From Phycisphaerales bacterium (GTDB taxonomy: Bacteria; Planctomycetota; Phycisphaerae; Phycisphaerales; SM1A02), in NCBI GenBank assembly GCA_007693845.1, contig RECV01000171.1:1-48992 (forward strand): 48,992 bases of DNA, read 5' to 3'. The position numbers and the translations under genes are program-made. Shown in pieces: positions 14,478 through 46,533 of this stretch (its first letter is position 1; every line of letters begins with the position of its first letter). Under the pieces are notes generated by a model that was not told the DNA's origin, did no database searches, and worked only from the letters and a program-made list of their open reading frames with translations.

Positions 14478-14586
14478 AGAAGACGACCGGGCCCGCCGGA
14501 CGGGTGGCCCGTGAACTTGGTCAGGGCTTGACCGCAGCAGCCATAAGCGGCGTCGTCCGAGCCAGCGGTGTCCTGGTCGTCTTCCC
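14478..14586 (+). ncRNA. ffs: Probable signal recognition particle RNA (small SRP RNA/4.5S-like)
   Basis: ORF-free 230-bp gap upstream of dnaX. Segment CTTGGTCAGG…GCAGCAGCCATAAG resembles the SRP domain IV consensus (CCAGGUCAGG…AAGCAGCCAAGG). A terminal helix pairs GAAGACGACC (14479-14488) with GGTCGTCTTC (14575-14584). Supported by the classical ffs–dnaX–ybaB–recR synteny. Confidence 0.45.
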
Positions 14587-14687
14587 GCGTCTTCGGCGTG
14601 TTTCCGATTGATGGATCAGCATTCGTTTCGTGACGTTCTTTCCGCTGCGTGAGACCACCTCGTCCACGCGACCCCGCGAGTTCCCGC

Positions 14688-16484
14688 ATGGCGAAGCGCA
14701 AGAAAACAAGCTCCCCGAAAAAGTCCGCCGAGACCAAACCACCGGCCGGCGCCGAGGCGAACCCCGGCGCGGGATACACGGTCCTCGCCCGCCGGTACCG
14801 CTCGCGTGACTTCGATGAGCTGATCGGCCAAGAACCCATCGCCCGCACCCTGCAGAACGCGATCAAGAGCGGTCGGGTCGCGCACGCCTATCTCTTCTGC
14901 GGCACGCGCGGGGTGGGCAAGACCTCCATGGCCCGAATCTTCGCCAAAGCGCTCAACGTCACCGAAGATCTCAAAGAGAAGGACCGGGTGGCGGATGCGA
15001 TCATGCGCGGCGAGGACCTCGATGTGATCGAAATCGACGCCGCCTCCAACCGCGGCATCGACAATGCACGTGACGTCATTGCGGGGGCCGGTCTCAGTCC
15101 TGCCCGCTGCCGATACAAAGTCTACATCATTGACGAAGTTCACATGCTCACGCCCCCGGCGTTCAATGCGCTGCTCAAGACGATGGAGGAGCCGCCCGCG
15201 CACGTGAAGTTCATTCTCTGCACGACCGAGTCGCACAAGGTGCCGCAGACGATCCAGAGCCGGTGCCAGCGATTCGACTTCCGGCCGATCCCGACGCAGC
15301 GCATCGCGGACCAGTTACGCATGATCCTCAAGAACGAGGGCGTTGAAGCGGACGACGGCGTCATCATCAGTATCGCGCAGCTTGGTAACGGCTCCATGCG
15401 CGATGCGCTGAGCATGCTCGACCGTATTCTGGCGACCGGTGAGCGGGAATTGTCCACGGAAATGATCGAGCAGATGATCGGTCTGCCCGATCAGGCACTG
15501 ATGATGGACCTGGTGGACGCGATTATCAGCCAGGAGGCCGGAACGACGCTGGAGAAGGGCGATGTGCTGATTCGCCGCGGGGCGTCGGTGGAGCAGATCC
15601 TGGACCTCCTCGCCACGCATTGGCGCAACCTGATGGTGATCAGCGCGTGCGGAGACGAGAGCCCGCTGCTGGAGATGCCCGAAGAGACGCGCCGGCGCGC
15701 CCAGACACAGGCGCAGGCATTCGATACCGCCGGGCTGGTGCATATGGTCGCGTTGTGTGACGCGGTGGCGCAGCGGGTGAAGACGTCCGGCACCGCGCGG
15801 GCGCTGTTTGACGCGGCCATCATTCGTATGGCACAGGCGGAACACTTCGCCGATGTCGCCTCCCTGTTGCGCGGCGAGCCGGCAGCATCGAGTGGAAAAA
15901 AAAAAGCCCTGAACCCGCCGCCCGGTGAAACGGTTCGGCCCGCCGCAATGCCGCGCGTGACCGAAGTCAAGCCGGCATCACCCCCCGCGACCGGCCCGTC
16001 CCGAATGCAAGCTGCGAATTCACCCCAGTCATCCGGCACAACGCCGGACGCACCGAAGGCGAAAGGGGCTGCTTCATCTGCCGCACCGGTCGATCCGACC
16101 GATGGGGCCGCGATCTGGGCGCGATTGCGTGAAGCCGCGGCGACCAAATCATTCCTGCAGGTGAAGATCGATCTGCTGGACTACGTCGGCTTCGACGGTC
16201 GAACGCTGCGGCTGGCGCTCGTTTCCCCTCAGGCCGCCGGTTCACGATTGATCACTGCCCAGACGATGACGACGCTGGAGTCACTCGTGCGCGAATCGGT
16301 TGGCATCAACGTTCGCATCGAAATTGTGAGCGAAGAGAACGCACCAGCCGGTTCATCAGCGCCACGCGCGGCGGAAAATGAACGGATTCGTCTGGCGCGG
16401 GAGGACCCCGCGGTGAAGAAGGCGATGGAAATCTTTGATGCCACCATCATCGATGTGCAGGATCAATCCCATCAGGGAGGATAG
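14688..16484 (+). CDS. dnaX: DNA polymerase III subunit gamma/tau
   Basis: LIGQEPIARTLQNAIKSGRVAHAYLFCGTRGVGKTS… AAA+ clamp-loader motifs. ATG at 14688. Confidence 0.93.
   Translation: MAKRKKTSSPKKSAETKPPAGAEANPGAGYTVLARRYRSRDFDELIGQEPIARTLQNAIKSGRVAHAYLFCGTRGVGKTSMARIFAKALNVTEDLKEKDRVADAIMRGEDLDVIEIDAASNRGIDNARDVIAGAGLSPARCRYKVYIIDEVHMLTPPAFNALLKTMEEPPAHVKFILCTTESHKVPQTIQSRCQRFDFRPIPTQRIADQLRMILKNEGVEADDGVIISIAQLGNGSMRDALSMLDRILATGERELSTEMIEQMIGLPDQALMMDLVDAIISQEAGTTLEKGDVLIRRGASVEQILDLLATHWRNLMVISACGDESPLLEMPEETRRRAQTQAQAFDTAGLVHMVALCDAVAQRVKTSGTARALFDAAIIRMAQAEHFADVASLLRGEPAASSGKKKALNPPPGETVRPAAMPRVTEVKPASPPATGPSRMQAANSPQSSGTTPDAPKAKGAASSAAPVDPTDGAAIWARLREAAATKSFLQVKIDLLDYVGFDGRTLRLALVSPQAAGSRLITAQTMTTLESLVRESVGINVRIEIVSEENAPAGSSAPRAAENERIRLAREDPAVKKAMEIFDATIIDVQDQSHQGG
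15896..15913 (+). other. A10 homopolymer (slippery run) inside dnaX with an immediate −1-frame UGA. Candidate gamma-subunit recoding or transcriptional-slippage site
   Basis: gga aaa aaa aaa gcc ctg a: the −1 frame reads AAA AAG CCC TGA. The position is ~codon 403 of ~598, near the domain III/IV boundary where E. coli (frameshift) and Thermus (slippage) generate gamma. Confidence 0.45.
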
Positions 16485-16493
16485 GATGAAGAC

Positions 16494-16871
16494 ATGTTTG
16501 ATCAACTGAAAGGCATGGCCGGTCTCGCCGGTCTGATGAAGGATCTTCCCAAACTCAAGGCCCGCATGGAGGAGATGAAGGAGCGGCTGGGCGAAGTGGA
16601 GGTCGAAGCGGAGACCGGCGGCGGGGCGGTCCGCGCCCGCGCGAACGGCAAACTGCGCATCGTCGAAATCAAGATCGATCCCGCGCTCATGGCCGGGCTA
16701 GTCGATGCGGCCAATGAAGACGACCGCGCGATGGCGGAAGATCTGGTCACCGGCGCCGTCAATGCTGCCCTTCAAAAAGCGCGAGAGGCGGCGGAAGAGC
16801 ACATGGCGGAAGTCGCATCCGAGATGGGGCTGCCCATGCCGCCCGGCGGGCTCGGTGGGCTGATGTCCTGA
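16494..16871 (+). CDS. ybaB: Nucleoid-associated protein YbaB/EbfC
   Basis: MFDQLKGMAGLAGLMKDLPKLKARMEEMKERLGEVEVEAETGGGAVRA… typical YbaB. Lies immediately after dnaX. Confidence 0.85.
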   Translation: MFDQLKGMAGLAGLMKDLPKLKARMEEMKERLGEVEVEAETGGGAVRARANGKLRIVEIKIDPALMAGLVDAANEDDRAMAEDLVTGAVNAALQKAREAAEEHMAEVASEMGLPMPPGGLGGLMS

Positions 16872-16921
16872 CGCCCAGTGCACCGAAACAAGTGCACCGA
16901 AGTGATTCCAACCGTCAACCC

Positions 16922-17572
16922 ATGAGTTCCGAAGCCACCAGCCAGGCGTACCCCGAACCGGTCAACCGATTGATCGAGGAGTTGTCGCGTCTGCCCGGCA
17001 TCGGCCGCCGAAGCGCGGAGCGGATGGCGTTCTTCATTCTCAAGGCCGAGCGGGATGACGCGATGCGTTTGAGCAAGGCGATCGCGGATGTCAAGGACGC
17101 GGTGCGCTGCTGCTCGATCTGTTCGACCTTGACGGATGTCGACCCCTGCCGCATCTGCACGAACCCGCAGCGCGATGCAAGCACGGTGTTGATCGTCGAA
17201 CAGGCGCGCGATCTGATCAGTCTCGAACAGACCGGCATGTACCGGGGCGTGTACCACGTACTGACCGGGCGGCTCGATCCGCTCAGCGGCGTGGAGGAAC
17301 ATGACCTCACGATTCAGCAACTCTTCGAGCGGATTGACGATGCGGCGCAGAACTGTCGAGGCGAGCAGGTGCGGGAGGTCATCCTCGGCCTGAACCCGAA
17401 TCTTGAAGGGGACAGCACGGCCCTTTACCTGTCCGACGAACTGCGAAAGCGGGGGGTGACGGTCTCCCGTCTCGCCCGCGGCCTGCCCTCGGGTTCTCAA
17501 CTCGAATACGCCAGCCGCGCGGTGCTCGCCGACGCGATCATGGGTCGCCAACCGGTCCCGGATGATCAATGA
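16922..17572 (+). CDS. recR: Recombination protein RecR
   Basis: HhH (LPGIGRRSAERMAF), C4 zinc finger (CCSICSTLTDVDPCRIC) and Toprim region. Confidence 0.9.
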   Translation: MSSEATSQAYPEPVNRLIEELSRLPGIGRRSAERMAFFILKAERDDAMRLSKAIADVKDAVRCCSICSTLTDVDPCRICTNPQRDASTVLIVEQARDLISLEQTGMYRGVYHVLTGRLDPLSGVEEHDLTIQQLFERIDDAAQNCRGEQVREVILGLNPNLEGDSTALYLSDELRKRGVTVSRLARGLPSGSQLEYASRAVLADAIMGRQPVPDDQ

Positions 17573-45808: not shown

Positions 45809-46460
45809 GATGACGAAAGACTCCTTGGTTCAATGCGTGATCGCGACATGTGATCACGCGGGGCAATGGGGTTATCCGGGACGGGGATGCGGACGCACAT
45901 GGCGCCGACACACCTCCAGGAGTTCGGCCAGGCCGCCGTGCACCAACTGGTGACGGTGACAGGCCACGAGCACATCGCTGCCGCCCACAACTTCGGGGAC
46001 GTACGGCCGATGTGGCGGTCGTTCATGACGTCTGAACAACATGGCGAGTTTCCTTTTTCAATGTTTCCTGCACTTGAACGAATACGATCAACGGTCTTCA
46101 GAAACGCACTGCCACGCGCAGCGCGATGGAACTTCAAAGGGGCGAACGAGCAAGGGGCACGTTGGGAGAGCCCCGCCTCGGTGACGGGCCCGGGCTTAAG
46201 CGCAGCGTCGGGTCAACGGTGGTTCGAACGTGCGACCTGGCCCCCCTCACACACCGGCGCACACGTTCGAGCCGTTCACACTTCACCGCGCGGTATCCAC
46301 CCTGGCGCAGGCCACCTCGTCGGTGTCATTCGGCGATCGGCGCGGCCGCCCCGGTGGCGGCAGGCACGCTTCCCGTCGAATGACCGGCTCGCCCGACGAT
46401 TCCCCCGCCCGTCCGCCGGGATGGAGCGCATGGACATGCGCGGTAACCGCCGAAGCGGTG

Positions 46461-46533
46461 GGTGCTGAGCAGGAGTCGAACCTGCGCTTACGGATGAGGA
46501 TTCCGTCGCTCTACCATCTGAGCTATCAAGCAC
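46461..46533 (-). tRNA. tRNA, anticodon read as CCU (Arg), with atypical features
   Basis: rc: GTGCTTGATAGCTCAGATGGTAGAGCGACGGAATCCTCATCCGTAAGCGCAGGTTCGACTCCTGCTCAGCACC. D-arm GCTC/GAGC. Anticodon stem ACGGA/TCCGT with loop AUCCUCA. T-arm GCAGG-TTCGACT-CCTGC. The acceptor stem needs a 1-nt bulge and position 37 is C. Confidence 0.65.

Follow-up and report, generated by a model that had tools for sequence, protein, structure and literature searches.

A Candidate Gamma/Tau Recoding Site in dnaX of a Phycisphaerales Bacterium and Its Conservation in Related Genomes

The dnaX Gene and Its Run of Ten Adenines

We analyzed a stretch of 48,992 nucleotides from a Phycisphaerales bacterium of the phylum Planctomycetota (contig RECV01000171.1; the whole stretch is hereafter referred to as the window), which carries a dnaX gene embedding a run of ten adenines (A10). 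This run lies where gamma, the short product of dnaX, would part from tau, the full-length one, and, on the basis of the comparative data reported below, we regard it as very probably a functional gamma/tau recoding site. The coordinates of the features discussed are collected in Table 1.

The identity of the gene is supported by the curated model TIGR02397 dnaX_nterm (389.7 bits, cut-off 250) and by a match of its product to PRK05563 (412.8 bits, cut-off 400). The deposited protein P0001, named by its source DNA polymerase III subunit gamma/tau of a Phycisphaerales metagenome-assembled genome (MAG), starts from the ATG at 14688, is 598 aa long (64.4 kDa) and is 100% identical to the open reading frame (ORF). 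The start of dnaX is ambiguous (GTG 14649 or ATG 14688), and residues are numbered here on either the 611-aa or the 598-aa form. Three Pfam domains, each above its gathering score, were recognized in the 611-aa form: PF13177 delta2/AAA+ (61-214), PF22608 lid (219-265) and PF12169 gamma3/domain III (269-405); the E. coli gamma/tau structures align to residues 38-342 with E ~1e-66. As to the C-terminal part, a profile hidden Markov model (HMM) of the tau C-terminus matches the zero frame, the match to PF12362 (535-603) is weak and under cut-off, and the full-length alignment to the gamma/tau equivalog models also stays under the model cut-offs.

A10 is the sole homopolymer of at least 8 nucleotides in the window (49 kb, 61.7% GC), in which 0.006 A or T runs of at least 10 would be expected if nucleotides were independent and identically distributed. 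Its first A is the last base of codon 416 (codon 403 of the 598-aa form), so that the zero frame reads GGA AAA AAA AAA GCC CTG AAC, with G403-K404-K405-K406 (598-aa numbering) across the run, and it contains two in-register A_AAA_AAA heptamers (15896-15902 and 15899-15905). An earlier note, based on the sequence of the window, had described the run and its codons correctly and had placed it about two thirds through the ORF, after the clamp-loader domains; indeed, it lies 68% through the ORF and 11 codons past the Pfam match to domain III, and the zero frame continues for 192 codons beyond it.

That both alternative frames close nearby, as the same note had seen, is also true, even though their labels had been swapped. 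The frame that stops at once (AAG CCC TGA) had been assigned to a −1 shift or to the insertion of one A; it is the +1 (= −2) frame, entered by the loss of one A or the gain of two. A −1 shift, or one inserted A, reads AGC CCT GAA CCC GCC GCC CGG TGA (SPEPAAR), so that it is the −1 frame, and not the +1 frame for which the note had counted eight codons, that runs on, through seven sense codons. Stops in both frames within 7 codons are found at 2.1% of the codon boundaries of the window's own dnaX (P = 0.021). The product sizes given in Table 1 were simulated from the number of A residues in the mRNA and are predicted, not measured, values; the short forms would have a mass of 44.5-45.1 kDa. The note's proposal that one gene yields both gamma and tau agrees with the conservation of the site described below, and its tau of 598 aa stands, while its gamma of ~405 aa is replaced by predicted forms of 407-413 aa.

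The Run and the Closed Alternative Frames in Related Genomes

The comparison set consisted of the dnaX loci of 80 species-representative genomes, all of them Phycisphaerae-like MAGs. Each locus was scored for the run and the codon register in which it lies, for the frame encoding the tau C-terminus and, in all frames, for the distance to the next stop. Searches with single tau C-termini (tblastn) could place the frame for only some 50% of the loci; the profile HMM was used instead and resolved it in 69 of 81 loci. The DnaX tree referred to below is a neighbor-joining tree of DnaX and not a species tree.

About 70 of the 80 genomes compared have an A-run or a slippery heptamer at the corresponding junction, so that the conservation in orthologs, which the earlier note had proposed as a check, is indeed observed. 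The layout of the window itself, that is, A10 or A11, tau in the zero frame and both other frames closed, is shared by 21 of the 80 species and probably by two more; the run of these 21 species is A10, except for A11 in one. At the protein level, Lys-Lys-Lys directly follows domain III in ~114 of the 120 closest database homologs (49-68% identical), in a linker that is otherwise unconserved.

Different lines of evidence bear on what is being conserved. All three codon registers are used by the A10-type run (10, 8 and 4 loci), and the nucleotides flanking it carry almost no information. Lysine codons elsewhere in the compared dnaX genes are preferentially AAG (262 AAG vs. 77 AAA, i.e., 77% AAG), and, given this usage, AAA AAA AAA would be expected with a probability of ~0.012 per species. 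A or T runs of at least 8 nucleotides are, moreover, specific to the junction: in 512 kb from these genomes (64% GC), 37 were found at the dnaX junction and one elsewhere. The window's own clade, formed by eight deep-branching species (WIN, i.e., the window, L001-L005, L007 and L009), is uniform, A10 lying in register 2 and tau being in frame throughout, and within it the run alone is conserved. Taken together, the use of every register, the length steady at 10, the preference for AAG and the junction-specific runs indicate, from comparative sequence data, that selection acts on the length of the nucleotide run and not on a codon pattern or a lysine patch.

The closure of the alternative frames was compared with a null obtained by sampling codon boundaries at random within the same genes. 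In the A10-type loci the −1 stop lies at a median distance of 2.5 codons (maximum 17; null median 26) and the +1 stop likewise at a median of 2.5 codons (maximum 48; null median 24). Of 22 loci, 13 have both non-zero frames shut within 8 codons (null 0.05; p ~5e-12), and with a limit of 17 codons the number rises to 20 (null 0.16; p ~2e-14); these binomial p-values are optimistic since related loci share ancestry. The flanks of these loci are strongly diverged, and the out-of-frame stops sit in unrelated sequence contexts.

Other Layouts at the Same Junction

The A7 class includes 32 loci with exactly A7 (A8 in one), always in the X_XXY_YYZ register. Most of them show a "reversed" organization (27 species, listed in Table 1): an in-register A_AAA_AAA (A8 in L060), located ~1.1-1.3 kb into dnaX (e.g., at 4167 in L018 and 4209 in L050), is followed by a zero-frame stop 1-5 codons on, and the tau C-terminus is encoded in the −1 frame. 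A GGAG-like motif occurs ~11-14 nt upstream in 18 of these 27 loci, and the class folds more strongly downstream than the A10 loci do. These loci look like cases of −1 frameshifting in which the essential tau would be the shifted product, a situation that would require high efficiency. A gene call that stops 3-5 residues past the Lys-Lys-Lys is seen in two database entries, P0042 (406 aa) and P0110 (407 aa), as would be expected if only the gamma part of a "reversed" dnaX gene had been called and the tau part left unannotated.

The remaining five A7 loci resemble the E. coli layout, with an in-register A7 and tau in frame (L021 at 4194, L024 at 4116, L025 at 4152, L039 at 4254 and L058 at 2741). 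The −1 stop is found within 7 codons (1-7), the +1 frame stays open for 4-192 codons, and a Shine-Dalgarno (SD)-like motif is present in four of the five. Three further genomes have an in-register G_GGA_AAA in place of the A7, and a zero-frame TGA comes after one intervening codon (L019, 4173-4179; L080, 4113-4119; L073, 4098-4104). The profile HMM placed tau in the −1 frame for L019 and L080 and detected no tau C-terminus in L073. Since G_GGA_AAA works only at the ribosome and cannot support polymerase slippage, its presence supports the reading of the A7 class as one of ribosomal frameshifting.

Longer runs can also have tau out of frame. Genes with A9/A10 and a −1-frame tau are scattered over the DnaX tree among the in-frame genes, and so are two with tau in the +1 frame relative to the N-terminus (L052, A10 at 4166; L069, A9 at 4118, where the short C-terminal match makes the frame tentative); in these two, one A lost, two gained, or a +1/−2 shift would be needed to obtain tau. 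Lastly, a sub-clade nested among the A10-type genes (L017, L020, L023 and L044) has tau in frame with neither an A-run nor a slippery heptamer nor clustered out-of-frame stops (junction at ~4080-4300 in L017, L023 and L044, and at ~1950-2150 in L020), an apparent loss of the recoding site.

The A7 and A10 classes differ in three respects. The heptamer-bearing loci close no frame beyond the one required, and the +1 frame is shut within 10 codons in 20 of 22 A10 loci vs. one of five in-frame A7 loci (Fisher p = 0.004). A GGAG-like motif is present at −17 to −9 in 22 of 32 A7 loci vs. four of 31 A9-A11 loci (Fisher p = 8e-6). The mean minimum free energy (MFE) of the downstream region is −25 to −28 kcal/mol in the A7 classes vs. 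−15 to −17 kcal/mol in the A10 classes, and the z-scores differ as well (p = 0.002). As judged from these signals, it is the A7 loci that carry the E. coli-type signature of ribosomal −1 frameshifting.

Signals Flanking the Run in the Window

In the window, no SD-like stimulator (GGAG, GAGG or AGGA) was found in the 24 nt 5' of A10 (cggcgagccggcagcatcgagtgg). The covariance model of the E. coli frameshifting element, RF00382, has no match in the window even at E <= 10, the E. coli positive control scoring 96.8 bits. Neither did it match nine A7-type sister loci, including the five in-frame ones; the elements of these sisters would resemble that of E. coli in their working, yet not be members of the enterobacterial Rfam family.

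The arms of the downstream hairpin that the earlier note had suggested (GCCCGCC...GGCGG) do not form an inverted repeat; no GGCGG occurs between 15900 and 15990, and CCGCC recurs in direct orientation. A different hairpin can be predicted (Table 1), with a stability close to that of the E. coli hairpin. Compared with shuffled sequences it has a z-score of −0.3 to +0.4. This test has little power when applied to one GC-rich sequence at a time, and even the proven hairpin of E. coli has z = 0.06 in it; the shuffling result was therefore not counted against a hairpin, and weight was placed on the weaker folding of the A10 classes and on a consensus prediction. No consensus structure downstream of the run is predicted across the window's clade of eight; a stimulatory role of this hairpin may exist but gains no support from these comparisons.

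Genomic Context of dnaX

The gene order ffs-dnaX-ybaB-recR is a classic arrangement, ybaB and recR being the usual neighbors of dnaX. The signal recognition particle (SRP) RNA encoded by ffs ends 67 nt 5' of GTG 14649. A small bacterial SRP RNA is likewise found 5' of dnaX in L021, L024, L025, L027, L050 and L058, and a large SRP RNA in L039. The sole tRNA gene of the window is a tRNA-Arg (CCT) at 46460-46533 on the minus strand; the window holds no tRNA-Lys gene.

Table 1. Features of the dnaX region of the window, products simulated for different A-run lengths in the mRNA, and loci with a "reversed" organization
Feature	Position	Strand	Details
SRP RNA (ffs)	14485..14581	+	RF00169, 45.3 bits (gathering score 40); small bacterial type
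dnaX ORF (tau), longest, from GTG	14649..16484	+	611 aa
Clamp-loader domains I-III, common to tau and gamma	14829..15863	+	aa 61-405 (611-aa numbering), Pfam
A10 homopolymer, proposed slippage site	15896..15905	+	register 2, GG-A AAA AAA AAA
Tau-specific C-terminal part (Pro-rich linker and C-terminal domain)	15906..16484	+	zero frame only
Predicted hairpin (CUGAACC.../...GGUUCGG)	15909..15938	+	15909-15915 pairs with 15932-15938; MFE ~-17 kcal/mol
TGA stop, +1 (= −2) frame	15910..15912	+	AAG CCC TGA; 1 codon after the run
TGA stop, −1 frame	15926..15928	+	7 sense codons after the run
ybaB	16494..16871	+	TIGR00103, 57 bits
recR	16892..17572	+	TIGR00615, 221 bits
Simulated product, A8 mRNA			gamma, 412 aa, stop 15926-15928
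Simulated product, A9 mRNA			gamma, 407 aa, ...GKKKP, stop 15910-15912
Simulated product, A10 mRNA			tau, 598 aa, 64.4 kDa
Simulated product, A11 mRNA (or −1 ribosomal shift)			gamma, 413 aa, ...GKKKSPEPAAR, stop 15926-15928
Simulated product, A12 mRNA			gamma, 408 aa, ...GKKKKP, stop 15910-15912
Simulated product, A13 mRNA			tau plus one extra Lys, 599 aa
"Reversed" A7/A8 loci			L018, L022, L026-L028, L035, L037, L040-L042, L048-L050, L055, L056, L060, L061, L063-L065, L067, L070, L071, L075, L077, L079, L011

Discussion

The earlier note had left the mechanism open. The comparative evidence favors slippage of the Thermus type over −1 frameshifting of the E. coli type: it is the lack of a −1 frameshifting signature in the A10 class, together with the closure of both alternative frames and the contrast with the A7 class, that leads us to read A10 as a transcriptional slippage site. 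That the run is a functional recoding site and that slippage is its main route is, in our opinion, a probable combination, held with less confidence than the recoding function in itself. According to this model, RNA polymerase would slip on the ten A residues and give rise to dnaX mRNAs with a variable number of them. Those with 10 or 13 would encode the full-length tau (598-599 aa, ~64 kDa); those with 11 or 8 would be read in the −1 frame and end after SPEPAAR (412-413 aa), and those with 9 or 12 in the +1 frame, ending after a single proline (407-408 aa). The short forms would be gamma-like proteins of ~45 kDa, which keep domains I-III and have lost the tau-specific C-terminus. The sequences themselves show how the site is built, that it is conserved and that both alternative frames close; the occurrence of slippage, its being the main route and the gamma:tau ratio are points that we infer. 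The scattering of genes with a −1- or +1-frame tau among in-frame genes is expected if all three frames are populated in the mRNA, and would hardly be tolerated otherwise.

The model for this reading is the transcriptional slippage site of Thermus thermophilus dnaX, reportedly described by Larsen et al. in 2000. According to later papers, slippage on its A9 run yields mRNAs in all three frames, stops are present in both non-zero frames and tau and gamma are produced at ~1:1 (PMC1088944, PMC5009743). The two sites are alike in having a sense-strand A-run in dnaX, tau in one ORF and near stops in both non-zero frames, a layout in which, in Thermus, every transcript whose run is altered by other than a multiple of three gives gamma. 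The window shows at least 9 A residues at the gamma/tau boundary, a single zero-frame tau ORF and closure of both other frames, and its run and closure are conserved in relatives. The sequence contexts are also similar, i.e., A9-GCC-TGA in Thermus, as drawn in Fig. S3 of PMC3711429, and A10-GCCC-TGA in the window. An A-run followed by GCC and TGA is found in four A7 loci too (A7-GCC-TGA in L018, L028, L064 and L077), and the recurrence of this context could be due to convergence or to chance. The differences concern the length of the run (A9 vs. A10), the taxonomic position of the window (phylum Planctomycetota, class Phycisphaerae) and the fact that slippage in the window is predicted.

Some points weigh against such a reading. 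The evidence is comparative throughout, and the p-values for frame closure are optimistic owing to the shared ancestry of the loci, although the stops sit in unrelated contexts. Given the heptamers A_AAA_AAA that lie in register inside A10 and the closed −1 frame, ribosomal −1 frameshifting may add to the output of gamma, and it could even be the dominant route. A hairpin of ~-17 kcal/mol is predicted to start 3 nt past A10, and our literature search found no paper on slippage by a Planctomycetota RNA polymerase. In a rival model, −1 programmed ribosomal frameshifting on A_AAA_AAA within A10, ending at the TGA in 15926-15928, would be the main source of gamma, with polymerase slippage playing a minor role. 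This model can be compared with the E. coli element (RF00382). In both cases the same gene and junction are concerned, the site lies about two thirds through the gene and after domain III, an in-register A-rich heptamer is present and the expected outcome is a gamma devoid of the tau C-terminus. The two heptamers, the −1 stop seven codons on, a possible hairpin 3-6 nt downstream with a stability near that of E. coli and the apparent use of −1 frameshifting at the same junction by sister lineages all speak for the rival model. However, the window has no GGAG, GAGG or AGGA at −17 to −9, a motif present in only four of 31 A10-type vs. 22 of 32 A7-type loci; RF00382 gives no match, and no downstream structure is conserved in the clade. 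Moreover, the run is longer than a heptamer and has been kept at 10 although 7 would do, the −1 stop is 7 codons away vs. 1 in E. coli, the +1 frame is closed too in 20 of 22 loci, which −1 frameshifting does not require, and tau lies in the +1 frame in two A9/A10 relatives. On balance, we consider it unlikely that ribosomal frameshifting is the main source of gamma in this organism.

Two other explanations would dispense with recoding altogether, or with the run itself. The A-run might simply encode a conserved Lys-Lys-Lys in the tau linker, the out-of-frame stops being incidental and gamma, if any, being made otherwise, e.g., by proteolysis. This idea is in agreement with the recurrence of Lys-Lys-Lys at this point in ~114 of the 120 closest database homologs and with the four-species sub-clade living without a slippery site; furthermore, in Caulobacter crescentus, where a single dnaX gene also gives a long and a short clamp-loader subunit, gamma arises by proteolysis of tau (work cited in PMC5009743). 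Such a post-translational process, however, needs neither a slippery sequence nor out-of-frame stops and leaves the conserved A10 unexplained. In spite of a 77% usage of AAG elsewhere, the run is of unbroken A in every species, in three registers and with the flanking partial codons included; apart from this, the linker shows no conservation; closure of both alternative frames is far more frequent than under the null; and many relatives have a zero-frame stop directly behind the run and tau in another frame, which makes recoding obligatory there. We consequently judge the absence of recoding quite improbable. As to an assembly or sequencing artefact of the MAG contig, or a hypermutable tract subject to phase variation at the DNA level, homopolymers are error-prone and mutable, and the exact protein occurs in one assembly only. 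Yet, the assembled length leaves tau in frame, and the same run length is found in 30 independent species-representative assemblies. dnaX is an essential single-copy gene, for which on/off switching is implausible, and we give this explanation hardly any credit. As the sole account of A10, codon choice in a lysine patch, assembly error and phase variation were rejected on the basis of codon usage, frame closure and recurrence across assemblies.

Every layout found here has already been published, and the window is a new example of a known mechanism. In Antonov et al. 2013 (PMC3711429), 17 "reversed" two-ORF dnaX genes from 12 genera are reported in which tau needs a shift; nine of them have A10, with examples in Figure S3 from Chlorobium, Flavobacterium, Cytophaga and Coraliomargarita among others, and Chlorobium phaeobacteroides has A7. 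The A10 at the junction is interpreted there as a site of transcriptional realignment, and E. coli-like stimulatory signals are mentioned for C. phaeobacteroides dnaX in PMC5009743. The A10 at the gamma/tau junction is common to those genes and to the window, and the architecture of those genes is found in 7-12 of the window's relatives; in the "reversed" genes, however, the zero frame ends after the run and tau needs a shift, whereas in the window tau is the zero-frame product. Only two Planctomycetes genomes were included in that dataset. Our literature search retrieved no paper linking Phycisphaerae with dnaX, and for Planctomycetes, dnaX and frameshift together it retrieved only a taxon table in Antonov 2013 (PMC3711429); no dnaX recoding in Planctomycetota was reported in the literature searched.

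A further question concerns the coexistence of four layouts at one junction. In genes with a long run, tau is either in frame (A10) or shifted to the −1 or +1 frame (A9/A10); in genes with an in-register heptamer, it is either in frame (A7) or in the −1 frame (A7 or G_GGA_AAA). Repeated interconversion of these layouts on the DnaX tree might represent an evolutionary toggle acting across the class, of which the window would be one state, an idea to which we would assign about even chances. If this idea was correct, recoding would be efficient and entrenched enough for the essential tau C-terminus to drift freely between genomic frames, and lineages would switch between transcriptional slippage and ribosomal frameshifting, thus offering a natural comparative system for the replacement of one mechanism by another. 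The clade-wide coexistence and repeated switching of layouts, a computed pattern, may be the most interesting by-product of this analysis.

From a practical viewpoint, the dnaX of the window should be recorded as a two-product gene, encoding tau and gamma. In many relatives the site splits the gene, and gene callers appear to report the gamma-length protein alone, leaving the essential tau C-terminus unannotated; this may be a systematic gap in the annotation of the clade. More generally, dnaX is a textbook case in which homologs reach two products by transcriptional slippage or by ribosomal frameshifting. The presence of all the published layouts side by side in one class extends this case to Planctomycetota and, while leaving the known mechanisms unchanged, makes the clade a dense comparative series on the evolution of recoding signals.

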